From Candidatus Komeilibacteria bacterium RIFOXYD1_FULL_37_29 (lineage in GTDB: Bacteria > Patescibacteriota > Patescibacteriia > UBA1558 > GWA2-36-10): a stretch of 64,000 bases of DNA. The notes under the pieces were generated by a model. That model was given only the letters and a program-made list of their open reading frames with translations, searched no databases and was not told the origin of the DNA. Shown here one piece after another: positions 6,001 through 39,960 of this stretch. Made by a program: the position numbers and the translations under genes. The stretch covers positions 250,038 through 314,037 of the forward strand of contig MHKS01000005.1 of assembly GCA_001818495.1 (NCBI GenBank). The letters are read 5' to 3'. Numbering within the stretch: the first letter of the stretch is position 1; every line of letters begins with the position of its first letter.

Positions 6001-9000
6001 TTATCTTGGTTCTTTGGCTTATAATGAAAAATCAAACGATGATTCTTGGGCCAAAAAGTTAGTAGCTTTATTTAAACCAGTCAGGGCTAACAGCCAAGGT
6101 AATCCGACAGTTGATATTATCGCTTTTAGAGTCATGAATAATTCAGAGCATCTTTCTATAATCGATTGGTATACCAAAAATGCTCCCAATCCAGAAGGTG
6201 GACAAACTATAACTATCAACGGTTACGAAGCCATGCAAGTCGGCGCTTCAATCTATATAGCGGCCACCAATATTGAAGGTGGAACAATTTATACCAATGT
6301 CTATATAATTGCTCATAATATTGGAGCCAATGCTACGACTTTAGAAATTTATAATCAGTTAGTTGAAAATTTCAAATTAAATGTTAATATTGGTACTACT
6401 TTGGCTGGTACCTGTAATGGTCAGACATCTTTATCGTGTTCTAGTGATTTTGACTGCCCAAATTATTGTGATAATTTTGCTGATAATAATCAGGCCGATT
6501 GTCTAGCCAGTGGCTCAAATTGGCTACCTGATAGTTGTGATGCCTCACTTCTAAAATTGCGTCGGGATACCAAGCGTCTCAGTGATTTGGTTAATATCAA
6601 TGAAGCTGTTTTAGCTTACGGAGAAATGCATAAAGCTTGTGCTAACAACAGCTTGATTTCTTGTCAAAATTCTTCCAATTGTCCGAGCGGGGCAGCTTGT
6701 GTGCCATATTATCCACCTTTAAATTCTGGAACGTATCTAAATGGATCTTCCAATACTCGCTGGCCGTCCTGGCAAGAAACTTTGTCCGGCACTTTGGGCT
6801 ATTCTTTGCCAGAAGATCCAATCAATTTATTTAATGGTTGTAATGATCCTTATAATCCTGAGACTTGTTGGGATGAACAGGCTTTGGAATTTATCTGTCC
6901 AGCCAATTCTTTGGTCTATATGTATAACATCGGGGGCATTGGACAGTCTTACTATTTGGGGGCAAAATTTGAATTTGATATGCAAAATCCTGCCCCGCCA
7001 GTTACTTTTGTTAATAATTTAAATAATCCAGTCACTATGGATTTGGATATCAATACTCCATATTGTGATGCTATTGTGTTAAATCCTCCGGGAGCTTCAG
7101 CTAGCCCCTATTGTGGTAACGGTGTGATTGATAATGATTACTGTACTGAGCCTGTTTATAATAATCAGGCCGCTTGTCTAGCCGCTGGTGCAGATTGGAT
7201 TGTCAGTGAAGAGTGTGATAACGAATTTTGGAGATTTGCTTGTTCAGAGTCTCCGCCAACTGCTAATCCAGCTATACCAACAGTCGGCAACCATGAATGG
7301 TGGAGAGAGCAGACCATTGGTTGTAATCCTCCTGGAACTATCAATAGTACCGGAGAATTGATTGAATGTACTTGGTATAGACCAAGTCCGCCAATTATTG
7401 CCTCTCAATGTGGCGGTTATTGCGGTGATGGAACTCGCCAGCCTTATTATGAAAGATGTGATGGAGGCTTACCAGCTGAACCTTATCATTGTGCTGAGGC
7501 CGGAGTAAACCCATATTGTGCCGATTGTCAGGTGCTTTGTAACAATGGCACAAATATTTATCCAGCTGCTTTATGTGGTGATGGTATTTGGTCACAACCA
7601 ACAGAACAATGTGATCCAACAGCCAACCCAAACGGTAATGCTGGTTGGGATTGTACGGATGGCGGTAACATTGGTTGTAGTAATAGTTGTCAAAGAACTT
7701 GTACAGTAGGTACTCCTTATCCAGGACTTTGTGGTGATGGTTCTTTTAATCCATTAAATGAAGAATGTGATTATTCTAACTACAGTGCACCACTACCAAT
7801 AAATTCTAGCGCCATAGCTAGTTACAGCTGTACTTTATTTTGTGAGATGAATGGTGAATTTTGTGGTGATGGTGTAGCTCAGTATGAATATCAAGAACTA
7901 TGTGATTGGAATGGAGGATCTTATACCAGTCCCACACCATTATTTTCTGATGAATTTCATCAATATGGTTGTCGGGAAAATGGTTTTTATACAGCTTTAA
8001 ATGGAGCAGACTATGGTGCTTGTACAGCTACTTTGGACGGTTGGTGCGGTGACGGTAATATTCAGGACGGTGTAACATTCCCAGATTATGGAGAAGAGTG
8101 TGATCCGGGAGCACCTTGGGATGAAATAGATCAAAACCCTCCACCACCACTGCCGGAAAATAGTAGTATCAACAATCAGTATTCTTGTGATATTGATTGT
8201 GTGGGCAGAATCGGTGGCTATTGTGGCGATAATGCGGCCAATGAACCATTTGAAATTTGTGACGGCTCAGATTATCCAACCAGGCCAATACCATTTTTCT
8301 CTGGACCAAACAATACTTATGCCTGTGATGCTGATTGTAGTGGTGGGGCAGTAGGTGGTGGCTGGTGTGGCGATGGTACCAAAAATAGCAATTATTACGA
8401 AGCCTGTGATTGGGGTATTGAGGGTGCTCAAGATGCAGACAATTATCCATGGCCCCGGGGAGCTAGCTTGAGTAATTTCTCCAGTGAAATGAATCAGTAT
8501 GTTTGTAGCTCCTGTGTAAATTTTGGTGGCTATTGCGGTAACGGTGTAGTGGATGGTGCTTGCACAGTCAATTGTACTGATTGCGATCAAAATAATAATA
8601 ATTGTCAGAGCTCAGTTGGCTGCACTGCCTTTCAGTGTACCTCCAAGAGTGGCACTTTCTTCCCTTATGAGCAGTGCGATAGCGGTTATGACCCGGCCTA
8701 TTTGGTCAATAAAAATGTCGATATTGTTTACATATTTGATACTTCTGGATCTATGAGTGGAGCGGCTGCCCAATTATGTCAATCTACTGCTACAGTAGTT
8801 AACACCTTAAATACTGAGCATCCAGATATAAATTATCGTATTACTATTTTCCCAATGGGCGATGGCGACGGTACAGATGGAGTGGGTTATGAACTGACAG
8901 CTACGGAAACTGATAATATTCAATATTTTTTTGAGTTAGAAAACGGAGAAGGTACTACAGAACCATGGTACGATGAAGTTTTCGATGCCTTGTATTCCAA

Positions 9001-10834: not shown

Positions 10835-11731
10835 ATGTTTGATGACTTAAAACAAGACAGTCCAATAAAATCAACTGCTCCCAATGGAGCGTCCAATACG
10901 AACAACTCGACAGTTCGTCAACCCCAAAGAGCGACTGGTATTGATGATATGTTTGATGATGTGGATCCGGTAGCTAGTGCAAGTAGCGGTGGACCAGTTG
11001 ATCCCAACAAACCTAGTGCTGTAAAGTCGGGTAAGATTAAGGTAGTTTCTCAAACCAACTTACCTACCAGCGCCCAGGCGGCTTCTCAGGTGGCTAGCTA
11101 TCCAGTTATACCACAGCCAGTTCGACCATCTAGCATGCCCACTATGTCACTAGATGATTCTATGGTTGTGACCGACGGAAGATCCAATGGCGTTATGAGA
11201 AAAATAATTATTACTTTTTTAGTCATTGTTCTTTTGGCCTTGGTCGGCGGGGGAGTTTATTATTTCTTTTTAAGAACTAATGGTTTGGACAATAACGCTC
11301 AGCCAAACGATAATGCCAATAATAATGTGGCTAATGAAAATAATAATCAAGTGGATGTATTTAATGAATCCGACCAAGAGCCGACAATCAATGAAGATGA
11401 ATTGGATGATGATTTTGATGGACTGAGCAATGGTTTAGAAAAGACCTATGGCACCAATCCTTTGGAAGTAGATAGTGATAATGACGGAGTTTTTGATCAA
11501 GATGAGGTCGAAACCCACAAGACTGATCCCTTAGCTGATGATAGTGATAGCGACGGACTTAGTGATTATCAGGAAATTATTATTTATAAGTCCGATCCCA
11601 ATGATCCCGATACAGATGGAGACACATTTTTAGACGGTGTGGAGGTGCTAAATGGTTATAATCCACTAGGTGCTGGTAAATTGGAAGAGGCTACTTCTAC
11701 TAGTAATTTAAATACTAACAATACTTTATAA
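10835..11731 (+). CDS. Single-pass membrane protein with an Asn-rich linker and thrombospondin type-3-like Ca-binding repeats
   Basis: TM helix IIITFLVIVLLALVGGGVYYFFL. Repeats DSDNDGVFDQDE, DDSDSDGLSDYQE and DPDTDGDTFLDG, all of D-x-D-x-DG-x-x-D-x-x-E type. Confidence 0.7.
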   Translation: MFDDLKQDSPIKSTAPNGASNTNNSTVRQPQRATGIDDMFDDVDPVASASSGGPVDPNKPSAVKSGKIKVVSQTNLPTSAQAASQVASYPVIPQPVRPSSMPTMSLDDSMVVTDGRSNGVMRKIIITFLVIVLLALVGGGVYYFFLRTNGLDNNAQPNDNANNNVANENNNQVDVFNESDQEPTINEDELDDDFDGLSNGLEKTYGTNPLEVDSDNDGVFDQDEVETHKTDPLADDSDSDGLSDYQEIIIYKSDPNDPDTDGDTFLDGVEVLNGYNPLGAGKLEEATSTSNLNTNNTL

Positions 11732-11735
11732 AATT

Positions 11736-12854
11736 ATGTTTAATGATCAGAATGTAAATAATCATTCGAGTGGCTTTGGTCGGGGCGATAATAACGGTTT
11801 TGGTAAAAAAAATAGCGCAGCTTTGGGCAATATTTTAGGTGTACAGAAAGAGGTGGTTAATGTCCATGCTATGCCATCCAAGTTTGTCACCACCACTCAG
11901 CGAACCGGCCATTTAACTACTGCTAGTGGAGCCAAAGGATCGGGGCGCAAATTATTATTAATTACTATTTCCTTGATTTTAGTAATCATTGTAGTAATTG
12001 GGGGAATTATGTATTTTGTTAATGGTGGAAAAGAAAAACTCAATTTTAGCCAACTATTTGGTCAAAATTTAGATTCTAATAATGTAGCCAATGAAAGTGT
12101 CAATCAGAATATAAATGACAACACAAACGACAACACCAATGAAGTAGTCAATGACAATACCAATCAGAATATAAACGACAACACCAACGACAACACCAAT
12201 GAAGTAGTCAATGACAATACCAATCAGAATATAAATGACAACACAAACGACAACACCAACGAAACTCCAAATTATCAGCCCGCTGTTGATACAGATGGAG
12301 ACGGTTTAACTACTGAAGAAGAATTGGTCTTTGGCACCAATCCGGATTTGGAGGACACCGATAAAGATGGTTATAAAGATGGACAAGAAATAACTAGTCT
12401 TTATAATCCTTTAGTACCAGCCCAAGATTTATTTTCTTCGGGCCTAGTTAAAAAATTTATTTCCTCCAATTATGGTTATACATTTTTTAGACCCAACACT
12501 TGGACAGCCAAGGTGGTCGGTACAGTTAGTAATATTATTATTTTGCCGGATTCTGAATCTGGTGAATCATTTAATATTGAAATAACGACTAATCCAGAAA
12601 ATAAAACACTTAGCCAGTTATTAGATGAAACGGGTAGTGTTTTTGTTGACGCTGAAAATTATAGTCTAGCTGGAGCACCGGCCTATCGTTCATTAGATGG
12701 CCGTAAAGTATCGGCTATCAGTAACGGTTTTTTATTCGTTATTTCTCACAATGTTAGTGGTTTAGGTGAAGTTAGTTTTGATAATATTTTTGAGATGATG
12801 TTAAAAAGTTTTACCTGGACGGAAATAGAGAGCCCCGATGTCAATGAATTATAA
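11736..12854 (+). CDS. Single-pass membrane protein with a tandem Asn/Asp/Thr repeat, TSP3-like repeats and a C-terminal globular domain
   Basis: TM helix LLLITISLILVIIVVIGGIMYFV. Three 20-aa peptide repeats NDNTNEVVNDNTNQNINDNT. TSP3-like motifs DTDGDGLTTEEE and DTDKDGYKDGQE. Same architecture as the upstream gene, which suggests paralogs. Confidence 0.7.
   Translation: MFNDQNVNNHSSGFGRGDNNGFGKKNSAALGNILGVQKEVVNVHAMPSKFVTTTQRTGHLTTASGAKGSGRKLLLITISLILVIIVVIGGIMYFVNGGKEKLNFSQLFGQNLDSNNVANESVNQNINDNTNDNTNEVVNDNTNQNINDNTNDNTNEVVNDNTNQNINDNTNDNTNETPNYQPAVDTDGDGLTTEEELVFGTNPDLEDTDKDGYKDGQEITSLYNPLVPAQDLFSSGLVKKFISSNYGYTFFRPNTWTAKVVGTVSNIIILPDSESGESFNIEITTNPENKTLSQLLDETGSVFVDAENYSLAGAPAYRSLDGRKVSAISNGFLFVISHNVSGLGEVSFDNIFEMMLKSFTWTEIESPDVNEL
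12110..12265. repeat. Intragenic 60-bp tandem repeat of about 2.6 copies (caatcagaatataaaYgacaacacMaacgacaacaccaatgaagtagtcaatgacaatac)
   Basis: A near-identical 60-bp unit is repeated in frame inside CDS 11736..12854. Confidence 0.8.
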
Positions 12855-19596: not shown

Positions 19597-19686
19597 GGAG
19601 AGGTGCTAGAGTGGTTGAATAGGGTGCTCTCGAAAAGCACTAGTCCTGAAAGGGACTCGGGGGTTCAAATCCCTCCCTCTCCGCCA
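19597..19686 (+). tRNA. tRNA-Ser (anticodon CGA), type II with a long variable arm, 3' CCA encoded
   Basis: GGAGAGGTG...acceptor, with the pairing CCTCTCC-G-CCA at the 3' end. D-loop AGAGTGGTTGAA. Anticodon loop CTCGAAA. Long extra arm. T-arm GGTTCAAATCC. Confidence 0.85.
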
Positions 19687-20190: not shown

Positions 20191-22020
20191 ATGTCTAAAA
20201 AAATTGATTACGACAACTGGTCAAAAGATGAGATAATCAAGGAGATTAGGCGAATCAAAGAAACTACATACGGACTTGTGTGGCATCGCGACTTACCTGA
20301 GGAAAAAATTGATATTCTTATAAACCCAGATGCTCGGACTCCAAATGAAATGTTCCCTAACGAAATGGCGGGCAAGCCATTTCCAGTTTTGAAAGAGGCA
20401 AAAACAAAAACAATTGAGACTGATAAAAATAAGCCGACAAATATTTTGATTGAGGGTGATAATTATCATTCTCTTGCCGTTTTGAATTTTACTCATCAAG
20501 AAGCAATTGATTTGATTTACATTGATCCGCCTTACAATACTGGCCACAACGATTTTGTTTACAATGATAAAATTAAAAGCGGTTATGTTGTTAAAGATGA
20601 TCCATTTAGGCATAGTAAATGGATTTCTTTCATGGAAAAAAGGTTAAAACTCGCAAAAAATTTATTGAAATCGTCGGGTGTTATTTTTATTAGTATTGAC
20701 GACAATGAATTTGCTCCATTAAAAATGCTGTGTGACGAGATTTTTGATGAAAGTAATTTCATCTCTATGTTGTCAATTGAAAATAATCCTAAGGGACGGA
20801 AAAACTCCGATTTTATATCTATTTGTAATGATTATTGTCTTATATACGCTAAAGACAAAGGTAAAAGTTATTTTGTTGAAAATATTCCCAAACAAGCTGA
20901 CGACTTAACGATTGATGATAATGGAGACTATGTACACAATAGCGGCAAACGGGTCCTTGTTGGAGAAAATAAATTTAATCCGCTTGTAGAAGATTTTGAA
21001 TCAGCTAAGCATTATAGTGTTTATTACAATCAGACTGATAATAAAATTAAAATAGAGGTGGAAAAAAATATTCACGAGGCAAACAAAGATTTATTAAAAA
21101 ACGGATATAAAAGATACTATTCTTATTTTGGAGACAGATTTGTCTTGAATACTTATACAAAATCAAAAATCATAGAGCTTTTCGAAGATGAGGCTCTCGA
21201 ATTCAAAAATGGGAGTATATATGAAAAAAATTTCAGCACAACAATTAGACTAAAAAGTCTTGTTATCAATAAAAAATATGAGGCAGTAATAAATAATGAA
21301 AAAGCAGAATATCAAATAGATGTTAAAACGACTTCAGCGAAGACTGAATTAAAGGATATTTTCAACACTGACCAAATTCCATTTGATAACCCCAAGAATA
21401 TTGGTTTGATAAAATTATTGGTAACATTATTTGAAAATAAATCAATAACTATTTTAGATTTTTTTGCAGGATCGGGAACGACCGGGCATGCAGTCCTTGG
21501 TCAAAATAAAGAAGATGGAGGAAATCGACAATTTATTCTGTGCACGAATAATGAAAATAATATATGCACTGATATCTGCTATCCCCGTCTTGGAAAAGTT
21601 ATAAAGGGATATAAAAATTCAAGAAATGAAAAAATTGATGGTTTGGGTGGAAACCTGAGATATTTTACTGCTTATGACTTTGTAGAAGCTAAGGAAACAG
21701 ATAGAAACAAAAGAAAACTAGTAAACCAATCAACAGAAATGCTTTGCATTAAGGAAAATGCTTTTGAGCTTGTGCAAGAAGTTGAAGATTATAAAATCTT
21801 CAAGAATCATGATAAATATTTGGGAATTATTTTTCATGAAGATTCTATATCGGACTATGTCAAAGCAATAAAAAAGATAAAAGGACACTTTAATACTTAT
21901 ACATTTTCAATGACGGATGATCCTCACAAAGAGGAATTTACTGATGTTGCGGACAAAGTAACTCTTTGTGCAATTCCAGAAATGATTTTGAAAGTATATC
22001 ATGAGATTTTCAAGGAATAA
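20191..22020 (+). CDS. mod: Type III restriction-modification system, Mod subunit (N6-adenine DNA methyltransferase)
   Basis: Motif IV DPPY within LIYIDPPYNTGHNDFVYND. Motif I FFAGSGTTGHAV. 609 aa. Overlaps res by 20 nt. Confidence 0.85.
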   Translation: MSKKIDYDNWSKDEIIKEIRRIKETTYGLVWHRDLPEEKIDILINPDARTPNEMFPNEMAGKPFPVLKEAKTKTIETDKNKPTNILIEGDNYHSLAVLNFTHQEAIDLIYIDPPYNTGHNDFVYNDKIKSGYVVKDDPFRHSKWISFMEKRLKLAKNLLKSSGVIFISIDDNEFAPLKMLCDEIFDESNFISMLSIENNPKGRKNSDFISICNDYCLIYAKDKGKSYFVENIPKQADDLTIDDNGDYVHNSGKRVLVGENKFNPLVEDFESAKHYSVYYNQTDNKIKIEVEKNIHEANKDLLKNGYKRYYSYFGDRFVLNTYTKSKIIELFEDEALEFKNGSIYEKNFSTTIRLKSLVINKKYEAVINNEKAEYQIDVKTTSAKTELKDIFNTDQIPFDNPKNIGLIKLLVTLFENKSITILDFFAGSGTTGHAVLGQNKEDGGNRQFILCTNNENNICTDICYPRLGKVIKGYKNSRNEKIDGLGGNLRYFTAYDFVEAKETDRNKRKLVNQSTEMLCIKENAFELVQEVEDYKIFKNHDKYLGIIFHEDSISDYVKAIKKIKGHFNTYTFSMTDDPHKEEFTDVADKVTLCAIPEMILKVYHEIFKE

Positions 22021-24262
22021 TTATATGTCATGGATTAATTTTAAAAATTATCAAGAAACTGCAATCGATGAAATACGCGACAAGATTAATGCCCTGCTCA
22101 AAAAAGAGGGTAATAGACTTTGCGTATTCAAAGCTCCGACTGGTTCGGGGAAAACTTTAATGATGGCGGAATGGATGATGAGGTTTTGTGACCCATATTC
22201 GCGAATTGATGGGAAAACTTTTTCTTTTGTATGGATAGCAGTAAATAAATTACATGATCAAAGCCATGACAGTTTAAAAAAGTTTTATGAGCTCAAAGGA
22301 GCGGGGCTTCGTTGTTCATATTTTCACGAACTTGAGGATAGAAAAATAAAACAGAACGAGATTTTATTTTTGAATTGGGCAAGTATCAATAATGAAGACA
22401 AGATTATTGTTCGCGCGAATGAAAGAGATAATAATCTCTCAACAATAATTGATCGGACCAAAGATGCCAGTCGGACAATTATTTTGATTATCGACGAAAG
22501 CCACCATACCGCAAAAAGTAAAAATTCAAAGGCTTTAATAAAAAATATTGACCCTAAAATTACGATCGAGGTTTCTGCTACACCAGAAATTTTTGATTTT
22601 GATGAGCGGGTAACCATTGATATTGAGGATGTACGAAGCGAGGAAATGATAAAGAAAGAAATTGTAGTGAACCCTGGCTTCAAAAATTACACAGTTGATC
22701 CAAAAAAGAACGATCAAACAGCAGACGAATTAATCTTGAAGTCTGCTTTGCAAAAAAGGATTGATTTGCGAAAAAAATTAGAAAAAGATGGTTCAAATGT
22801 CAATCCCTTATTACTTATTCAATTACCGGATACAAAAAAAGGAGTTCCTGATAAAAAAGAGGAGATTGAAACACTTCTTGCTAAATTTGGCTATACAACA
22901 AAAAATGGAAAGTTGGCTGTCTATCTTTCTGAAAAAGATAACAAAATAAATCTTGCTAATATTGAGAAAAATGAAAACGAAGTGGAGGTAATGATGTTCA
23001 AGCAAGCGATTGCACTTGGTTGGGATTGTCCAAGAGCTACAATTCTTGTGCTTTTCCGTCAATGGAAAGATGAAACGATAACATTCTCAATCCAAACATT
23101 GGGAAGAATCATGCGTATGCCTGAGCAAAAACATTATAAAGATCAAGAGTTGAATATTGCTTATCTTTATACTAGTTTACAAGACATTAATACTCGTATT
23201 TTGAAAGGTGCTTCGTCGGGAATAAAATCTCTTACGAGTTATCGCAATGAGAAATATAAAAATATTGACCTAATTTCATATCACTCAAAACGATTCCGTG
23301 AGGAAACTCGTTTGTCTTCTGATTTTGTGAAAATTTTTATCGAAGCCGCTAAAAAAACAAATTTAAAAGATGTTTCGCTAAAAGTCGGGATTGTGAAAAC
23401 AACAATGATCAAAGATGGACGCGTGGAAAATGCGGATAAAGAAATAACAAAGATTGAAAGTGATACTTTTTCTATACCCAAAACAGAGACGGAGCTGCAA
23501 TATACTTTTGATATGTTTGTGCTTGATAATCTTGATCCGTTTGAACATGAAGCCCGTTCTATAAAACGCATAAACGATTCAATTTATACTTTCTTTGGCG
23601 CACGACGCAAAGAAGATGAATGGCCTAAAATACAAGCCACGATACTTTCGTATGAAAAGAATCGCCAAGCTGTAATTGATGCTATTAATCTAGCAAAAGA
23701 TTTATATAAAACCGAAGTTGGAAAAGGCAAAAAAGAACTGATACAAAATGATGAGCCGTGGAATGTGCCAGAAGCTATTAATTTTGATCCGTCATTTGTA
23801 GAGCAAAATTATAAAAAATCTATAATGCAACCATATTACGCTCGTTCTCGGGATGGAGAAAACGGACGATTGTTTGAGGACAGTGAAATTGAAAATGATT
23901 TTATTAAATACCTAGAAAAAGCACAGAAAGTTGTTTGGTGGTTCAGAAATGGGAAACAAGACGGATCATTTTTTGCTGTCCCGCACATTGAACACGGACA
24001 AGAAAAGCCGTTTTATGTTGATTTTATAGTTATGATGAAAAATGGAACTGTTGGGCTTTTTGATACAAAATCAGGATATACTGCCGAACTAGCAAAATCT
24101 CGCTCTGATGGACTTGTAAAATATATTAATGAGCAGAAAAAGAAAAAAATTACTGGCGGAATTGTGAGATACGAAAAGAAAAGTTGGCTATATTTTACTA
24201 ACAAAGAATATAAATATAATCCGAATGATATAAAGGATTGGGAATTTTTGGATTTGAATTAA
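22001..24262 (+). CDS. res: Type III restriction enzyme, Res subunit (SF2 helicase-nuclease)
   Basis: Walker A FKAPTGSGKT. DEAH box IIDESHH. 753 aa. Translationally coupled to mod. Confidence 0.85.
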   Translation: MRFSRNNYMSWINFKNYQETAIDEIRDKINALLKKEGNRLCVFKAPTGSGKTLMMAEWMMRFCDPYSRIDGKTFSFVWIAVNKLHDQSHDSLKKFYELKGAGLRCSYFHELEDRKIKQNEILFLNWASINNEDKIIVRANERDNNLSTIIDRTKDASRTIILIIDESHHTAKSKNSKALIKNIDPKITIEVSATPEIFDFDERVTIDIEDVRSEEMIKKEIVVNPGFKNYTVDPKKNDQTADELILKSALQKRIDLRKKLEKDGSNVNPLLLIQLPDTKKGVPDKKEEIETLLAKFGYTTKNGKLAVYLSEKDNKINLANIEKNENEVEVMMFKQAIALGWDCPRATILVLFRQWKDETITFSIQTLGRIMRMPEQKHYKDQELNIAYLYTSLQDINTRILKGASSGIKSLTSYRNEKYKNIDLISYHSKRFREETRLSSDFVKIFIEAAKKTNLKDVSLKVGIVKTTMIKDGRVENADKEITKIESDTFSIPKTETELQYTFDMFVLDNLDPFEHEARSIKRINDSIYTFFGARRKEDEWPKIQATILSYEKNRQAVIDAINLAKDLYKTEVGKGKKELIQNDEPWNVPEAINFDPSFVEQNYKKSIMQPYYARSRDGENGRLFEDSEIENDFIKYLEKAQKVVWWFRNGKQDGSFFAVPHIEHGQEKPFYVDFIVMMKNGTVGLFDTKSGYTAELAKSRSDGLVKYINEQKKKKITGGIVRYEKKSWLYFTNKEYKYNPNDIKDWEFLDLN

Positions 24263-24265
24263 ATT

Positions 24266-25450
24266 ATGGCATTAGAATCAGAAAAATTGGAAGAAAAAAT
24301 AGTTGATAATTATTTTACTGATACTCTATATAGTAGTCGGGAATTTAAGGGTGGAGTAGGTAAATTTTTTACAATAGTATCTCAGGATGAAAATGATATC
24401 CCAAATGTAGTTGATGTTGAGCATTCGTATCCTATACGCAATAAAATAAAGACAACGCTGACATTTATCAAAAAAGAAAACGAAATTACAGCCATTTCCT
24501 TTAAGCGTTTTAAATATTATAAAAAAGAACATTGGGTTGAACAACCAGAAGAACAGATTACTTTTTCATACAGTCTTTTTAAAAAAATTATTGGGTATTT
24601 ACAGTTACTATCAGAATTAAATTTGTCGGCTATTAGTGAGCGAAGAATTGCTTTAGCCGATGACACATTACCGAATATTGACGATGAAACAAAAAAGAAG
24701 ATTAAAACATTGCTTTTACGCAAAGATGGGCAAAAAATTATTGAGGAATTAATAAATAGCGGAATAATTACATCAACCGATATTGTAAATATCGGGTATC
24801 GAAAAAAACAACTTGATGTTTTTGAGAAGCTCCTGACACAACCCGATTATTTTGCAACCTATATAACTGAAAGTAAAATTACAGATACTCGTCATGAGTC
24901 TGTTTGGCAACATTTCTTCCATTCTAATGATTGGATTTTTGGATATGGACTAGATTATCGCTTTCTTGGCATCCTGCAAAAAGAAGCTCATATTTCAAAT
25001 ACAGACGTCGCAGGAAAAGGGGCTGTTATAAATGATTTTCTACTCGGGTGCAATAAATTCACCGTTTTGGTTGAATTAAAAAAACACGACACACCATTAT
25101 TTGGAAAAGACAAAAACCGGTCAAACTCTTGGACACTTTCAGATGATTTAATATCTGGTCTATCTCAAATATTAGAGCAAAAAGCTAGTTGGCAGGTTTC
25201 GGCCGAGACAAATGCAAGTGGAAATTTTGACGATAAGGGTAATTTGATAAAACAAAAAACTATCGATCCAAAAAGTATCTTAGTTATCGGATCAACAAAG
25301 CAATTTGATGGTGATGATAAAGAAAATCAAATTAAAGCAAAAACCTTTGAACTTTTTAGACGAGATTCAAGAAATATAGAAATTCTTACTTATGACGAAC
25401 TGTATGAGAGAGCGAAGTTTATTGTTGAACATAAACAGAAAGACAACTAG
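24266..25450 (+). CDS. Putative defense-associated PD-(D/E)xK nuclease, Shedu (SduA/DUF4263)-like
   Basis: 394 aa. Core AVINDFLLGCNKFTVLVELKK gives D...ELK, a PD-(D/E)xK signature. C-terminal KSILVIGST...IEILTYDELYERA resembles DUF4263 ends. Immediately downstream of Type III R-M. Confidence 0.4.
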   Translation: MALESEKLEEKIVDNYFTDTLYSSREFKGGVGKFFTIVSQDENDIPNVVDVEHSYPIRNKIKTTLTFIKKENEITAISFKRFKYYKKEHWVEQPEEQITFSYSLFKKIIGYLQLLSELNLSAISERRIALADDTLPNIDDETKKKIKTLLLRKDGQKIIEELINSGIITSTDIVNIGYRKKQLDVFEKLLTQPDYFATYITESKITDTRHESVWQHFFHSNDWIFGYGLDYRFLGILQKEAHISNTDVAGKGAVINDFLLGCNKFTVLVELKKHDTPLFGKDKNRSNSWTLSDDLISGLSQILEQKASWQVSAETNASGNFDDKGNLIKQKTIDPKSILVIGSTKQFDGDDKENQIKAKTFELFRRDSRNIEILTYDELYERAKFIVEHKQKDN

Positions 25451-25793: not shown

Positions 25794-26387
25794 ATGGATC
25801 AACAAACAATCAATACATACAACAGGATGTCACAAGAGTATGATGATGAAACAGCTGATTTTTGGGAGCGATTTCCTCGAACATTTCTTGATAAATTTAT
25901 TAAGCTATCCGGTAATAAAATACTTGATGTTGGGAGCGGACCAGGTAGAGATGGTTTGATACTTCAACAGGCCGGTAAAAATGTTGTCTGTGTGGATGCT
26001 TCTGCAGCAATGGTGAAATTGTCTTCAGACAGAGGTTTAAACTCTATAGTAGCCAGTTTCGACAATTTACCATTTGAAAATAATTCATTTGACGGCGTAT
26101 GGTCATATACTGCTCTTTTACATATTCCCAAAAAATCTATCGATACCCCTCTTCAAGAGATTTTTCGTATTATCAAACCTTCAGGTATTTTTGCTCTTGG
26201 TCTGATTGAAGGGGACACAGAAGGATACAAAGAAAGCTCTGAAGTGACTATGCCTCGTTGGTTTAGTTTCTATCAGAAAGACGAAGTTGAAAATTTATGC
26301 CAAAAGCACGGATTTGAGCTGGTTTACTTTGAGACTTTTAAACCAGGGTCCAAGCCCTATTTGAATTTTATTTTTCGAAAAATATAA
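25794..26387 (+). CDS. Class I SAM-dependent methyltransferase (Methyltransf_11-like)
   Basis: Motif I KILDVGSGPGRDGL. Acidic motif II VVCVDAS. 197 aa. Confidence 0.75.
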   Translation: MDQQTINTYNRMSQEYDDETADFWERFPRTFLDKFIKLSGNKILDVGSGPGRDGLILQQAGKNVVCVDASAAMVKLSSDRGLNSIVASFDNLPFENNSFDGVWSYTALLHIPKKSIDTPLQEIFRIIKPSGIFALGLIEGDTEGYKESSEVTMPRWFSFYQKDEVENLCQKHGFELVYFETFKPGSKPYLNFIFRKI

Positions 26388-28426: not shown

Positions 28427-29247
28427 TTAAAGATTTTCAAAAGATAGAGTTTTTAAAATCACTTTACAGTGATAAAGACTTAATATCGTTTCGTGGCAAT
28501 TTTTTAAAAAATAATTCCAACCGTAAATTCTCATTAAGATCTTTTATTATTAAACTTTTGCCGATGCTAAAGGATAAAAAAATATTAGACATTGGTTGCG
28601 GAGACGGGTCATTCCTCAATAAATTACATACGGTATATCCTCAAAATAAATATTTTGGTTTGGATGTAGTAGATAATGCTAAATGCCATAAATTGAAATT
28701 TCTTGACTACAAAATTTATGATGGTAAATCCAGGGTTTATTATACGGAAAAATTTGATGTGATATTTTGTATGCACACTGTTTATCATATCGAAGATTTA
28801 TTCACTTTTTTTACAACGATGAAAGACTATTTAAAGCCCCATGGCATTATTATCATTACTACGAAGTCTAAATTGACTTTTCCTAAAATAGAATCAATCT
28901 TTTTAAAGATTGTCGGTAAGCTTGACTTAAAAAAATATTTAAAAATTAGCAAACACAGAGAGGAATCAAAATTTTGTTTGGAGAACGGATTAAACAGATT
29001 AAAAAAACACTTCGCTAGGCGGTCATTTAGTATAAATGAGTATGTTTTAGAAACGCAGGTTTTTGTTAATGACAAAAAAGATCTTTTGAAATATGTTTTT
29101 TCTACAAATAGATATAATATTTTGAAAGATACTTTAAACAAAAAAATTGTTGAAAAATATACAAAACTTTGGTTTGAAGAAATTGATAAAGATCAGATAT
29201 TCATTGATAAATATACGGAGGCTGTTTATTTAATAAAAAAATTATGA
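28423..29247 (+). CDS. SAM-dependent methyltransferase
   Basis: Motif I KILDIGCGDGSFLNKL. D-x motif KYFGLDVVD. Start overlaps the upstream stop by 4 nt. Confidence 0.7.
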   Translation: MIKDFQKIEFLKSLYSDKDLISFRGNFLKNNSNRKFSLRSFIIKLLPMLKDKKILDIGCGDGSFLNKLHTVYPQNKYFGLDVVDNAKCHKLKFLDYKIYDGKSRVYYTEKFDVIFCMHTVYHIEDLFTFFTTMKDYLKPHGIIIITTKSKLTFPKIESIFLKIVGKLDLKKYLKISKHREESKFCLENGLNRLKKHFARRSFSINEYVLETQVFVNDKKDLLKYVFSTNRYNILKDTLNKKIVEKYTKLWFEEIDKDQIFIDKYTEAVYLIKKL

Positions 29248-30311
29248 AAATAGGTTATAGTTGCTGGGGATTTTTGGGTAACGGAATAAAGGATACACCG
29301 GATGGCGGGAGGAGTCACCGGTTGACTTTATTGAAAGAATTAATCCGTCAAGGAGTTGAAATAGTAATGTTGCAAAAGAATAGAGACCTCATTGAAGGCA
29401 ATCAAAGTTTTTCACGAAAGAATTTAATATTTAGTGGTGAGTTACCGGAAATAGATGCTCTATTTGTAGAATATAGATGGAAGATAGTAGGAAGGAATTA
29501 TAAGGTGAGAAAAAATAATCCAGCCTATACTCCGGATTTCGATAGACAGAGTGAATTAATTAATTTTTATAATAATAGAAATATTCCTATTATTATTTGG
29601 GATAAAGATCAGAAACTTGGTAAGAATGAAATAAAAGGCATTAAAAATTTGATTGTATTTGAACCTGCTTTAAAGCCAAGGTTTAATAGAAAAAGTTTAT
29701 TGTTTCCGATGGACAATCATAGAACAAAAATTGTCCTCAAATTGATAGGTAAGTATAAAAAAAATATTAAGAGCTCCAAGTTGTGTTACATTGGAAATCA
29801 ATATGAGAGAGATGGTAGTTTTAAAGAGTTTATTAATAAGCCAGCCAGTATGCTCGATACCAAAACACCAGTATTTGGTAATTGGAACAAATATCCAGAA
29901 AAGTATAAGCAAAATATGCAAAAATTTTCCAATGTTGAATTTAAAGGTAGGGTGCAGTTTAATAAAGTTAATAATATTTATAAAAAATCTTTTTCTACAG
30001 TTCTTATCGCGCCACGGAGATATTATATCACGGGTCATTTTACACAAAGATTATTTGAGGCAATGTGGGGCTTATGCATTCCTTTTACCCCGCAGCAATA
30101 TCATGGATGGCAGGGTTTAATAATAAAAGATTTTATAATTAGATCTGGCAAAGATTTAATAAATAAGATAAAAAAATTAGAAACAACGCCCGATTCAGAT
30201 ATAAGGAGAATGTTTGATAGACAGTTTGAGAAACTTAATTTATTTAATGCCAGTAAACAAGCCAGTATAATTATAAACGAAATCAATAATCATAATGGTA
30301 GACTCGGGTAA
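29244..30311 (+). CDS. T4 beta-glucosyl-HMC-transferase-like (BGT-family GT-B) putative DNA glycosyltransferase
   Basis: Comparison with the recalled T4 BGT sequence shows collinear matches. MKIGYSCWGFLGNG vs MKIAIINMGNNVIN. RLTLLKELIRQGVEIVMLQKN vs IYLFKVISEMGLNVDIISLKN. CYIGNQYERDGSF vs IYGGSFRSGQRE. TKTPVFGNWNKYP vs TKAPVFTGKIP. FTQRLFEAM vs ITLRVWETM. 355 aa versus 351 aa for T4 BGT. Confidence 0.55.
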   Translation: MKIGYSCWGFLGNGIKDTPDGGRSHRLTLLKELIRQGVEIVMLQKNRDLIEGNQSFSRKNLIFSGELPEIDALFVEYRWKIVGRNYKVRKNNPAYTPDFDRQSELINFYNNRNIPIIIWDKDQKLGKNEIKGIKNLIVFEPALKPRFNRKSLLFPMDNHRTKIVLKLIGKYKKNIKSSKLCYIGNQYERDGSFKEFINKPASMLDTKTPVFGNWNKYPEKYKQNMQKFSNVEFKGRVQFNKVNNIYKKSFSTVLIAPRRYYITGHFTQRLFEAMWGLCIPFTPQQYHGWQGLIIKDFIIRSGKDLINKIKKLETTPDSDIRRMFDRQFEKLNLFNASKQASIIINEINNHNGRLG

Positions 30312-31074
30312 TAAAAATAAATCTTTAGAAATTGTAATTGATTCTAAACACTATATTAAAAAAAGATATTCTGATATCCAACGTTTTTTTTGTGAATTAA
30401 AATATCTTAAATATTTTAAAGATGAAGATATCAATGTTCCTTTTATATATAAATTTGATAAAATCCAAAAAACAATAATAATAGATAAAATAAAGGGGAA
30501 AATCGGCGATTCATTAAATAATAGAGACACAAAACTATGCATTGATGTGCTTGTCAAAATAATTTTTATTTTTGGTTTGGAAAAGAAAAATAATAATGAA
30601 ATTGATAGGTATATTTCAAAAGTCAGGTCAAATATAATATGGTGGTGTGAAAATAATAATTATATAGTAGAAAAAGAAAAATTAAATATTTTACTTCAAA
30701 AGTTAAGAAAAGTGTGTTATATATCTTTATTCAAAGATGCCAAACCATCTAATTGGATTTTTCAAAAAGATAAAATATACGCAATAGACTTTGATTATGT
30801 AAAAAAATCATTTTTTTTAGCAGATTTAGCACAACTTTTAAGTTATATTTCATTAAGGAAAAAAATAAGTTATATTTTCTTTGTAAATTATTATCTAAAG
30901 CAAATATTCCCAAAAATGAAGGATTATGATAAATTTTATATACCTTTTAAATTAGCGCTTGTTAATTCCAACATTGCTTCTGAACTTCACAGAGAGAATT
31001 TAGGAGCCTATGTAAAAAGGGGTTTTGCCAAACAAAACAGGTTTATTTTGAGTGAATTTAAGATAATATTATAA
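30295..31074 (+). CDS. Atypical protein-kinase-like (Kdo/WaaP/RIO-type) small-molecule kinase
   Basis: Catalytic-loop-like FKDAKPSNWIF (D-x-K-P-x-N) and a metal-binding IYAIDFDYV (DFD) motif. 259 aa. Confidence 0.4.
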   Translation: MVDSGNKNKSLEIVIDSKHYIKKRYSDIQRFFCELKYLKYFKDEDINVPFIYKFDKIQKTIIIDKIKGKIGDSLNNRDTKLCIDVLVKIIFIFGLEKKNNNEIDRYISKVRSNIIWWCENNNYIVEKEKLNILLQKLRKVCYISLFKDAKPSNWIFQKDKIYAIDFDYVKKSFFLADLAQLLSYISLRKKISYIFFVNYYLKQIFPKMKDYDKFYIPFKLALVNSNIASELHRENLGAYVKRGFAKQNRFILSEFKIIL

Positions 31075-31955
31075 TGTCAATATCAATAACCGCCAAATCA
31101 GCTAATGAAGCATTCATTAAAATAGCTGATAAATTGTATAATAATCCGGAATATGTTTCTAGTCCTCGAAGCTGGGAAACAAGGGAGTTATTAGGGGCTT
31201 TTATTGTTATCAACAATCCCTATGATCGTTTTATAAATAATGTTCATAGGAAGATTTCTTTAAAGTATCTTATTGGTGAATGGTTATGGTATGAGCGAGG
31301 ATCCAATTCTTTAAATGAAATTAATTATTATGCAAAATTTTGGAGCAGTATTTCGGATGATAAAATAACTGCCAATTCAGCTTATGGTCATAGAATTTTA
31401 GGGATCAATAAGTTCGTGATTATTAATCAATGGAAGTGGGCCAAACGGCAAATAATAAAAGATAAGGAAACAAGGAGAGCCATCATTTTTATTGGATTGC
31501 CAAGTGATATGAAAAACGAAACGAAAGATTTTCCTTGCACTATGTCACTCCAGTTTTTAATAAGAAATAATGAGTTACATTTAATTTGCAATATGAGGAG
31601 CAATGATTTAGTATTGGGTTTTACTTATGATGTAGCTACCTTTACTTTATATCAAGAAAAAATGTTGTTGGAGTTGAAAAAATATTATCCAAAATTAAAG
31701 ATAGGTAAATATTTTCATATGGTAGGCAGTTTACACGTATATAAGAAAAACTATGAGATGATAAAAAAAGTGATAAATGATCAGGACAATAATTTGAAAA
31801 TTACCATGCCTCGCATGGGTGATTTAAAAGAAATAAAAAAACTCCAGTATAACGAGAGTATTATAAGAGAAAATAAAAATAAAAAGTTTAAAAAAATTGA
31901 AGATAGATTCTGTATCTGGTGTCAGAATATTTTATTAAATAAAATTAAATACTAA
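31074..31955 (+). CDS. Thymidylate-synthase-family pyrimidine-nucleotide C5 (hydroxy)methylase with predicted dCMP specificity (deoxycytidylate hydroxymethylase-like)
   Basis: Collinear with E. coli ThyA. KYLIGEWLWYERG vs RSIIHELLWFLQG. The YG loop is conserved. RRAII vs RRIIV. FPCTMSLQFLIRNNELHLICNMRSNDLVLGFTYDVATF vs [38 protein letters not shown]. The catalytic Cys is present. The Asn that reads O4/N3 of dUMP (E. coli N177) is Asp here, as in T4 dCMP hydroxymethylase (Asp179). Confidence 0.7.
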   Translation: MSISITAKSANEAFIKIADKLYNNPEYVSSPRSWETRELLGAFIVINNPYDRFINNVHRKISLKYLIGEWLWYERGSNSLNEINYYAKFWSSISDDKITANSAYGHRILGINKFVIINQWKWAKRQIIKDKETRRAIIFIGLPSDMKNETKDFPCTMSLQFLIRNNELHLICNMRSNDLVLGFTYDVATFTLYQEKMLLELKKYYPKLKIGKYFHMVGSLHVYKKNYEMIKKVINDQDNNLKITMPRMGDLKEIKKLQYNESIIRENKNKKFKKIEDRFCIWCQNILLNKIKY

Positions 31956-39381: not shown

Positions 39382-39960
39382 ATGAATTTTAAAGAGGAAA
39401 AAACATTTGTGATGATCAAGCCGGACGGTGTCCGCAAGAATCTGATTGGCGAAATTATTGCTCGTTTTGAACAACGCGATTTAAAAATAGTAGCTTTGGA
39501 AATGTTTCAGCCAACTGTTGCCCAGATTGATGAGCATTATCCCAAGGATAAGGCTTGGATCGCTCGCTTGGGTCAAAAAACTTTAAGTACTTATGAAAAA
39601 TACGGAGTTGATCCGATTAAAGAGCTGGGTACTGACAATGATTTTGAAATTGGTCAGATGGTCCGCAAGTGGTTGGTTGATTATATGACCTCTGCTCCTT
39701 TGGTTAGAATGGTGGTCCAAGGTATTCATGCGGTTGATATGGTTCGTAAAATTTGCGGTGTCACTATTCCCAATATGGCTGACATGGGTACTATTCGTGG
39801 TGATTTTTCCTCTGATTCTCCTTCAGTAGCTAATAGTGAAAAAAGAGCAGTAATGAATTTGATCCATGCGTCTGAAACTCCGCAAGAAGCTGAACACGAA
39901 ATGAAACATTGGTTTGGAAGCAGAAAGGTTATATTCAATTACGAGCGTTACCAAGATTAA
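39382..39960 (+). CDS. ndk: Nucleoside diphosphate kinase
   Basis: TFVMIKPDGV and the NxxHASD-like region NLIHASE. 192 aa. Confidence 0.85.
   Translation: MNFKEEKTFVMIKPDGVRKNLIGEIIARFEQRDLKIVALEMFQPTVAQIDEHYPKDKAWIARLGQKTLSTYEKYGVDPIKELGTDNDFEIGQMVRKWLVDYMTSAPLVRMVVQGIHAVDMVRKICGVTIPNMADMGTIRGDFSSDSPSVANSEKRAVMNLIHASETPQEAEHEMKHWFGSRKVIFNYERYQD

Follow-up and report, generated by a model that had tools for sequence, protein, structure and literature searches.

The stretch analysed here (hereafter the window) comprises 64,000 nucleotides of contig MHKS01000005.1 from Candidatus Komeilibacteria bacterium RIFOXYD1_FULL_37_29, and encodes at positions 29244-30311 a 355 aa GT-B glycosyltransferase (hereafter GT) that an original prediction, made from the sequence alone, had likened to the DNA beta-glucosyltransferase (BGT) of phage T4; the open reading frame (ORF) is present exactly as predicted. 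On the evidence of profile comparisons, GT is a genuine, specific and distant homologue of T4 BGT. It belongs to a new, widespread BGT-like family that is not GT4 by sequence and that falls outside PF09198 and CAZy GT63 as curated, because it gives no profile match there and its acceptor domain is different. The GT family is tightly linked to dCMP hydroxymethylases of the T4 gp42 type, and a role directed at 5-hydroxymethylcytosine (hmC) is for this reason the best reading of its function. GT is probably an hmC-directed, BGT-like O-glycosyltransferase, and the fuller proposition, that this uncharacterised family glycosylates hmC within the operon pathway outlined below, is favoured somewhat less strongly. 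The operon would make 5-hydroxymethyl-deoxycytidylate, probably decorated with sugar, carbamate, methyl and phosphate groups. The proposal that GT acts on hmC already incorporated into DNA, and not on a free nucleotide, is tentative, falling a little short of an even call.

To our knowledge, T4 BGT has long been regarded as an evolutionary orphan, the product of a tiny glycosyltransferase family confined to T-even-like phages. Over its 351 aa, the reference sequence used here has 100% identity to the b-gt gene product annotated in the T4-like phage RB55. Identity between GT and T4 BGT is about 16-23%; pairwise BLASTP was not significant (E 0.092) and a single-sequence phmmer search of GT against the PDB returned nothing relevant, and because these methods are too insensitive at this distance, profiles were needed. 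Alignment A1 comprised 30 GT-family members (258 homologues of GT were found in a large protein database) and alignment A3 comprised 19 BGT-family proteins. Searched against 177,635 distinct PDB sequences (E<=10), the A1 hidden Markov model (HMM) had T4 DNA beta-glucosyltransferase as its sole match (E 2.2e-8, 36.7 bits; query 154-335 to BGT 159-335), with none of the GT4, GT1, GT5 or GT20 structures among its hits. Comparison of A1 with the single T4 BGT sequence by hhalign gave a probability of 87.5% (E 3.6e-6), and comparison with A3 gave 97.9% (E 4.4e-13, 308 columns), with query residues 11-354 aligned to T4 8-351, bearing out the predicted collinearity over the full length. The claim of equal size also holds (355 versus 351 aa), both proteins being of the two-domain GT-B type of ~350 aa and structurally superposable. 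In the reverse direction, the A3 HMM retrieved 44 matches at E<=0.1 among 15,660 ORFs from the window and 129 loci, every one of them a member of the GT family. The window GT itself was missed by this HMM under the default HMMER speed filters and recovered with the filters off (--max), at 38.1 bits and E 1.2e-11 among 231 window ORFs, the runner-up standing at E 0.69.

Curated libraries were uninformative for GT. The only Pfam-A match was sub-threshold, to PF00534 (Glycos_transf_1; E 0.055, 13.5 bits against a cutoff of 26.4), and PHROGs, NCBIfam and PADLOC assigned no family. The operon is not a catalogued defence system. Membership of GT4/PF13524 (Glyco_trans_1_2, CgeB-like) was not supported, PF13524 appearing only as weak precomputed matches in relatives of GT and equally so in genuine BGTs. 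As a technical observation, the default HMMER acceleration and bias filters lost a 38-bit, E 1e-11 match in this AT-rich gene with its Lys/Asn-rich product, and remote matches in low-GC proteins of the candidate phyla radiation (CPR) may be systematically missed by default Pfam scans.

The homology signal is carried by the C-terminal, donor-binding (NDP-sugar) domain. Six residues are invariant in both families, GT G184, R189, G212, T267, R269 and E272 corresponding to BGT G188, R191, G214, T267, R269 and E272, and the UDP-binding residues of the BGT C-terminal domain are conserved in the GT family; from the BGT-UDP crystal structures, we take R191 and R269 to contact the UDP phosphates and E272 the ribose. 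Two of the sequence blocks originally proposed as shared are correct and hold five of these residues: IGNQYER / YGGSFR includes G184~G188 and R189~R191, and FTQRLFEAM / ITLRVWETM includes T267, R269 and E272. A third block, TKTPVF / TKAPVF, is a look-alike about 22 residues off-register, the homologous pairing in the hhalign and HMM alignments being that of window F233-G235-R236-V237 with T4 F234-G236-K237-I238 and of window G212 with T4 G214. The N-terminal MKI..G..N resemblance is trivial, and the proposed helix block is aligned by hhalign, weakly; neither is independent evidence, given that the N-terminal domain alone is not significant (see below). The acceptor domain of the GT family has an extremely conserved invariant set of its own (SxWGF, DTPDGGR, QxNRD, ExRW, DxxRQ and WDKD), and contains six invariant arginines. 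In the hhalign comparison of the N-terminal domains, no counterparts in GT were aligned to the BGT-family N-domain invariants N70, G73, G74, T99, D100 and Q137. The invariant W119-D120-K121-D122 stands directly after strand 116-119 (beta4), which is topologically equivalent to a BGT strand. Net charge and isoelectric point (pI) were of no use as indicators of DNA binding, the pI ranging from 4.9 to 9.4 in genuine BGTs and from 5.1 to 10.0 in the GT family.

Two genes downstream of GT lies a thymidylate synthase (TS) homologue bearing the gp42 signature. Its closest PDB match was the MilA CMP hydroxymethylase (1.5e-30), followed by T4 dCMP hydroxymethylase (1.3e-17) and ThyA (about 1e-13). In E. 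coli ThyA numbering it carries L143D, C146, H147T, S167, D169 and N177D, identical to T4 gp42, and its complete R-D-C-T-S-D-D signature includes Arg126/Ser167 and the retained D169. Asp at position 177 denotes specificity for cytosine, and Arg/Ser instead of the MilA-type Lys133/Ala176 denotes deoxyribose (PMC5175136), while D169N marks 5-hydroxy-dCMP synthase among TS homologues (PMC13326640). Because it combines Asp177, the Arg/Ser deoxy signature and the retained D169, the protein is predicted by these published residue rules to be a dCMP hydroxymethylase, the signature being observed and the activity inferred. Asp is found at position 169 in the window enzyme and in all GT-linked TS homologues examined, and a system coupled to a 5-hydroxy-dCMP synthase, of the RB69/DLP3 type, was rejected on this residue.

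The linkage between GT and hydroxymethylase is not peculiar to the window. A scan of one bacterial genome per species detected relatives of GT in 328 species, mostly Actinomycetota, with further carriers among Paceibacterota, Saccharibacteria, Woesebacteria, Rickettsiales, Amoebophilaceae, Bdellovibrionales, Anaerolineae and Solirubrobacterales; the assumption that BGT-type enzymes are restricted to phages does not extend to this family. Cultured carriers include Kitasatospora phosalacinea NRRL B-16228 and Streptomyces tanashiensis JCM 4086. Among the best 80 loci, a carbamoyltransferase was found within 8 kb of GT in 77, a TS homologue in 75, and a methyltransferase and an APH-type kinase in about 72 each. 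All 75 of these bacterial TS homologues present the gp42 Asp/Thr/Asp signature and none is of ThyA type; 40 match the gp42 signature exactly, 34 differ only by Gly167 and one has K126/G167. The sole canonical ThyA observed lies 9 kb from GT on the other strand (locus L007; labels of this form denote fetched loci).

Gene order is kept across CPR bacteria, Rickettsiales and Bdellovibrionales. In Saccharibacteria (L051) the order is P-loop kinase, carbamoyltransferase, methyltransferase, GT, kinase, hydroxymethylase and deaminase, with a HAD hydrolase upstream of the kinase; Woesebacteria (L048/L052 and L047) have the same order with an added sulfotransferase, no P-loop kinase homologue being found in L047. 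The Rickettsiales version (L053) reads UDP-glucose-dehydrogenase-like gene, GT, kinase, hydroxymethylase and P-loop kinase, followed by carbamoyltransferase, methyltransferase and CysNC, and that of Bdellovibrionales (L055) reads GT, kinase, hydroxymethylase and P-loop kinase. A kinase gene follows GT in L004, L047, L048, L051, L053 and L055, and in three GT relatives of 592-618 aa (P0006, P0010 and P0014) the kinase is fused to the GT C-terminus, constituting a Rosetta-stone link between the two. The methyltransferase has an orthologue between carbamoyltransferase and GT in L004, L047, L048 and L051, homologues of the P-loop kinase sit in the same operon in L048/L052, L051, L053, L055 and L065, and in L047, L048 and L051 a deaminase gene comes next after that of the hydroxymethylase, in the same orientation.

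The second setting of the family is viral. In IMG/VR, 38 loci carry a GT relative at 25-36% identity, forming 24 clusters at 70% identity, and in 19 of these 24 clusters a gp42-signature hydroxymethylase lies within 8 kb of GT, often at 1-5 kb; many also have a dCMP deaminase. A carbamoyltransferase, methyltransferase or kinase was found in none of the viral loci. Their neighbours include DNA polymerase III alpha (12 of 23 loci), NDP-sugar epimerases or dehydratases (9), thymidine kinase (4), RGP-type UDP-arabinopyranose mutase (3), UDP-galactopyranose mutase (2), dUTPase_2 (2), helicases and NusG, a picture of a DNA-hypermodification module within a replication module, and a metagenomic 96-kb phage-like contig (L008) has the same arrangement. 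The acceptor-domain invariants S6, WGF, R47, ExRW, DxxRQ, D120 and D122 are retained in viral members. In one locus from the viral catalogue (L011) the hydroxymethylase has the MilA-type K/A ribo signature. The linkage of GT with a hydroxymethylase is near-obligate in these two very different genomic settings, bacterial and viral.

From these associations a pathway can be proposed. The gp42-type enzyme would convert dCMP into 5-hydroxymethyl-dCMP, which the Tmk-like kinase and then nucleoside-diphosphate kinase (NDK, encoded at 39.4 kb) would raise to the triphosphate for incorporation into DNA. GT would then move a sugar from a UDP-sugar to the 5-CH2OH of hmC in the manner of BGT, with WD120-x-D122 as candidate catalytic loop; use of a UDP-sugar is suggested by the viral epimerases and mutases and by the UDP-glucose-dehydrogenase-like genes of L049 and L053. 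The GT-associated kinase may phosphorylate that sugar or make a sugar-1-phosphate donor, and the carbamoyltransferase and methyltransferase, joined by the sulfotransferase in sister genomes, would decorate the product further.

Four known systems come closest to this one. T4 BGT (PF09198, CAZy GT63; PDB 1BGT/1C3J/1JG6) resembles GT in its GT-B fold, near-equal length, donor-site invariants and gp42-type hydroxymethylase partner; it differs in that the GT acceptor domain has no recognisable sequence similarity to it and a different invariant set, in that the GT family is encoded both by uncultured phages and by bacterial chromosomes, and in lacking the accompanying kinase, carbamoyltransferase and methyltransferase. 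The RB69, DLP3 and RL38J1 clusters likewise place a Tmk-like kinase, a GT-B glycosyltransferase and a TS homologue side by side (Lee et al., NAR 2026, PMC13326640), with the glycosyltransferase base-proximal and with an APH-like sugar kinase, mutases and epimerases nearby; unlike the window operon, they are phage-encoded, their TS homologues are D169N and make 5-hydroxy-dCMP, whereas the window enzyme keeps D169 and the gp42 signature, and their glycosyltransferases are not detectably related to the GT family by tblastn. The 5hmC carbamoyltransferase pathway found by MetaGPA (Yang et al., eLife 2021, PMC8670742) shares with the window a NodU/TobZ carbamoyltransferase, a TS-family cytosine hydroxymethylase and a dCMP deaminase; it is phage-borne, has no glycosyltransferase and places the carbamoyl group directly on the hydroxymethyl, whereas the window operon is chromosomal and its carbamoyltransferase only 22% identical. 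In the window operon GT is a competitor for that hydroxyl, and the carbamoyl group is therefore more likely to sit on the sugar. The mildiomycin and bacimethrin pathways (MilA/BcmA) provide a bacterial, non-phage precedent for a TS homologue making hydroxymethylcytosine for a small molecule, with ribo-type Lys133/Ala176 in place of the Arg/Ser of the window enzyme (PMC5175136), and their clusters contain an N-glycosidase (MilB/BcmB) and neither a BGT-like glycosyltransferase nor a carbamoyltransferase.

Several observations weigh against an hmC-directed, BGT-like enzyme, and some of them against an acceptor in DNA in particular. No member of the GT family is characterised. The check originally suggested, an HMM search with PF09198, produced no match for GT under default hmmscan against Pfam-A (E<=0.1); the miss may reflect HMMER speed filtering, because the home-made A3 HMM likewise missed GT by default and yet gave 38 bits with --max. 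Neither the window GT (E<=1) nor either of two viral members matched any of 50,697 GenBank phage records by tblastn, and the family therefore has no cultured-phage anchor. The N-terminal 160 residues alone are not significantly similar to BGT by hhalign (E 0.045, probability 1%), the full-length hhalign alignment sets BGT D100 opposite GT N111/R112, which are not acidic, and the WD120-x-D122 loop is a candidate counterpart of the BGT catalytic Asp100 (T99-D100) by topology only, with no hhalign support. The window carbamoyltransferase is 22% identical (E 7e-13) to the characterised 5hmC carbamoyltransferase, and Gly in place of Ser167 in 35 of the 75 bacterial hydroxymethylases could admit ribonucleotides. 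Against an acceptor in DNA specifically, the operon includes no dCTPase and no phage genes are nearby. Of the prediction that GT is a BGT acting in an hmC pathway, what stands is a BGT homologue linked to a gp42-type hydroxymethylase; the PF09198 match, the phage-borne location and one of the motifs do not.

The same side of the balance holds the features that would suit a different product. The same glycosylation of the 5-hydroxymethyl group could take place on a free nucleotide or nucleoside, the cluster serving to make a decorated 5-hydroxymethyl-(deoxy)cytidine antimetabolite or antibiotic, and we regard this as a real though minority possibility. MilA, of mildiomycin biosynthesis, is the closest solved relative of the hydroxymethylase; the six invariant acceptor-domain arginines could bind a mononucleotide phosphate; the missing dCTPase and the ribo-type K/A signature of L011 fit equally; and natural products are typically tailored by carbamoyl, methyl and sulfo transfer, for which the clusters are equipped, with CysNC as a further neighbour in L053. 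The version in Streptomyces nigrescens CP114202 (L002 1-17056) comprises about 14 genes, adding a GerE/LuxR regulator, HAD and His phosphatases, a second APH kinase, an NDP-sugar epimerase, an AdoHcyase-like dehydrogenase, a NUDIX protein, a cytidylyltransferase, a 623-aa protein without assigned function and a 167-aa protein, and that in Agrobacterium tumefaciens (L006) has an ABC-2 exporter as its last gene. The two have the look of unassigned clusters for nucleoside natural products, for which agrocin 434, described as a disubstituted cytidine nucleoside, is a speculative candidate. Literature searches found no paper describing the GT family, the bacterial cluster or a matching natural product.

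Against a free nucleoside stand the deoxy-type Arg/Ser signature of the window hydroxymethylase, the Tmk-like nucleoside monophosphate kinase, which is expected for a polymerase substrate and not for a secreted nucleoside, and the CPR-type operons, which have no exporter or phosphatase (L051, with its HAD hydrolase, being the exception). The phage members, too, lie in replication modules and have the same acceptor-site residues. An acceptor in DNA draws support from three directions: the trio of Tmk-like kinase, glycosyltransferase and TS homologue is also the core described for phage clusters that glycosylate cytosine (PMC13326640, Table 1), phage members share the invariants of the acceptor domain, and the Tmk-like kinase and NDK could supply hm-dCTP.

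A quite different possibility is that GT is an ordinary cell-envelope or polysaccharide glycosyltransferase (GT4/CgeB-like) with a housekeeping TS-like gene as chance neighbour. The sub-threshold Glycos_transf_1 match, the relatives with weak PF13524 matches and the source name 'CgeB family', and the NodU-, NodS- and NodH-like partners, which resemble oligosaccharide decoration, point this way. We consider it highly improbable, given that the GT-family profile matches no GT-B chain in the PDB other than T4 BGT, that genuine BGTs likewise have weak PF13524 matches, that the TS neighbour is never ThyA-type (gp42 Asp/Thr/Asp in 75/75) and that co-occurrence with the hydroxymethylase extends to phage replication modules. 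A bona fide T4-type BGT (PF09198 / CAZy GT63) on a prophage or mis-binned phage contig, as the T4 BGT length, the shared C-terminal motifs and the nearby gp42-like hydroxymethylase and dCMP deaminase might suggest, is effectively refuted for this locus, and the remaining likelihood is the slightest of all those considered: there is no PF09198 or GenBank phage match, the BGT N-domain invariants have no aligned counterparts, and the window has housekeeping genes and no phage structural genes, with an identical protein in a Komeilibacteria genome.

The occurrence of the operon in CPR bacteria and in other obligate symbionts or predators (Saccharibacteria, Woesebacteria, Paceibacterota, Rickettsiales, Bdellovibrionales) raises a further hypothesis, which we consider unlikely on present evidence: that these organisms put hmC into their own chromosome by a phage-like pathway and then glycosylate, phosphorylate, carbamoylate, methylate and sometimes sulfate the base. 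If true, such a pyrimidine hypermodification would be the first of its kind in cells as opposed to viruses, a self-marking or anti-nuclease system in a defence island. The analysis more broadly identifies a large sister family of BGT that shares its donor-binding domain, differs in its acceptor domain and is spread over 328 bacterial species and dozens of uncultured phages. The family bears on the question of the origin of DNA O-glycosyltransferases raised in PMC13326640, and is a source of candidate enzymes that may bring new sugar specificities to the chemistry used for labelling and sequencing 5hmC. The analysis also defines a conserved five-gene bacterial cluster (hydroxymethylase, glycosyltransferase, carbamoyltransferase, methyltransferase and kinase), whose product would be a new family of natural products derived from deoxycytidine or else the first hypermodification of hmC in cells.

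The features of the operon and of the region upstream of it are collected in Table 1.

Table 1. Features of the GT operon and of the adjoining low-GC region, in window coordinates.
Feature	Position	Strand	Evidence and remarks
tRNA-Ser(cga)	19597-19686	+	Low-GC stretch starts after this gene
N6/N4 DNA methylase of Type III restriction-modification (R-M) pair	20191-22020	+	
Type III Res (restriction helicase) of R-M pair	22001-24262	+	
Shedu SduA, full-length	24266-25450	+	PADLOC E 1.7e-154
Second S-adenosylmethionine (SAM) methyltransferase, 197 aa, loosely associated	25794-26387	+	Methyltransf_11 E 2e-18
NodU/CmcH/TobZ-type O-carbamoyltransferase, 572 aa	26708-28426	+	PF02543 E 1e-41, PF16861 E 4e-54; PHROG 'Nol-like carbamoyltransferase' E 2e-112
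SAM-dependent methyltransferase, 274 aa	28423-29247	+	Methyltransf_23/31/11, E 4e-16 and weaker; 4-nt overlap with both neighbours
BGT-like GT-B glycosyltransferase (GT), 355 aa	29244-30311	+	ATG start
Protein-kinase-like/APH-like small-molecule kinase, 259 aa	30295-31074	+	Weak Pfam APH and NCBIfam Bud32 matches
Predicted dCMP 5-hydroxymethylase (TS superfamily, T4 gp42 type)	31074-31955	+	PF00303 E 5e-22, far below ThyA equivalog cutoffs
Tmk-like P-loop nucleotide kinase, 223 aa	31957-32628	+	AlphaFold2 pLDDT 94.4; Foldseek, profile
dCMP deaminase, 164 aa	32620-33114	-	Convergent with operon; PF00383 E 2e-23, PHROG dCMP deaminase E 7e-39

GT is the third gene in a run of closely packed same-strand ORFs, in which the methyltransferase overlaps the ORF upstream of it by 4 nt, GT by 4 nt, the kinase by 17 nt and the hydroxymethylase by 1 nt. 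The assignment of the P-loop protein required both profile and structure, a single-sequence PDB search having returned only spurious matches to de novo designs: the family profile had thymidylate kinase as best PDB match (E 0.0028), and the top Foldseek hits of the model in the PDB were adenylate, thymidylate, deoxynucleoside and uridine-cytidine kinases, mostly Tmk (E 1e-6 to 5e-4, TM about 0.5-0.57). In L047 and L048, homologues of the second methyltransferase lie close to the operon and in the opposite orientation to it; the membership of this methyltransferase in the operon is uncertain. In NCBIfam and PADLOC the window deaminase is best matched by the deaminase domain of dCTP deaminases with an anti-phage role (E 1e-23 and 4e-29), with an NCBIfam score of 84 bits, well below the cut-off of 400, and it may be a nucleotide-pool-editing enzyme rather than a housekeeping ComEB.

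The operon occupies a CPR (Komeilibacteria) chromosome, between ftsZ and prfA. The genes annotated in the window include ftsA, ftsZ, nrdR, prfA, comEC, ndk (39382-39960), rpsL, rpsG, fusA, tuf and rplC, and no phage structural genes, so the phage setting implied for GT is not borne out. Candidatus Komeilibacteria bacterium RIFOXYC1_FULL_37_11 has an annotated protein identical to GT, and this sequence also occurs on a 549-kb contig; a mis-binned huge phage as the source of this contig was rejected in view of its ftsA/ftsZ, prfA, comEC and str-operon genes and the lack of phage structural genes. GC content falls to 27-34% between 20 and 33 kb of the window, against about 38-40% in the flanks. 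This low-GC stretch, which holds the GT operon together with the Type III R-M and Shedu genes, forms an island of defence or accessory genes. An att-like repeat of the tRNA-Ser 3' end was sought as a marker of the far border of the island, and none was found.

Additional features were noted among the relatives of the operon. Beyond Actinomycetota and a few other metagenome-assembled genomes (MAGs; Anaerolineae), the closest carriers are obligate symbionts, parasites and predators, namely CPR phyla, Rickettsiales, Amoebophilaceae and Bdellovibrionales (L050-L055, L065), a striking pattern of host-dependent lifestyles. Short UDP-glucose/GDP-mannose-dehydrogenase-like genes adjoin GT in L053 (135-1004) and L049 (9241-10011), and a CysN/CysC fusion (3'-phosphoadenosine 5'-phosphosulfate synthesis) follows the operon in the Rickettsiales MAG (L053 7625-8929); together these genes are a hint that the donor is a uronic-acid sugar and that sulfation does take place. 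The viral contig L044 carries two tandem GT paralogues (6600-7745 and 7989-9140), the upstream copy of which has lost most acceptor-domain invariants and may be a second-sugar transferase. Directly upstream of viral GTs lies a conserved ORF of ~180 aa (for example L017 7465-7998, L018 7456-7995, L036 7468-7998 and L008 5261-5806), which in L008 has a faint Metallophos_2 match.

Near the start of the window, a 3578-aa ORF (77-10813) combines an N-terminal segment resembling a type IV secretion system pilin with multiple Ig-like (He_PIG, Big_5) domains, and is followed by two TSP3-repeat proteins (10835-12854); it is probably a giant surface or pilus-associated protein of CPR bacteria.

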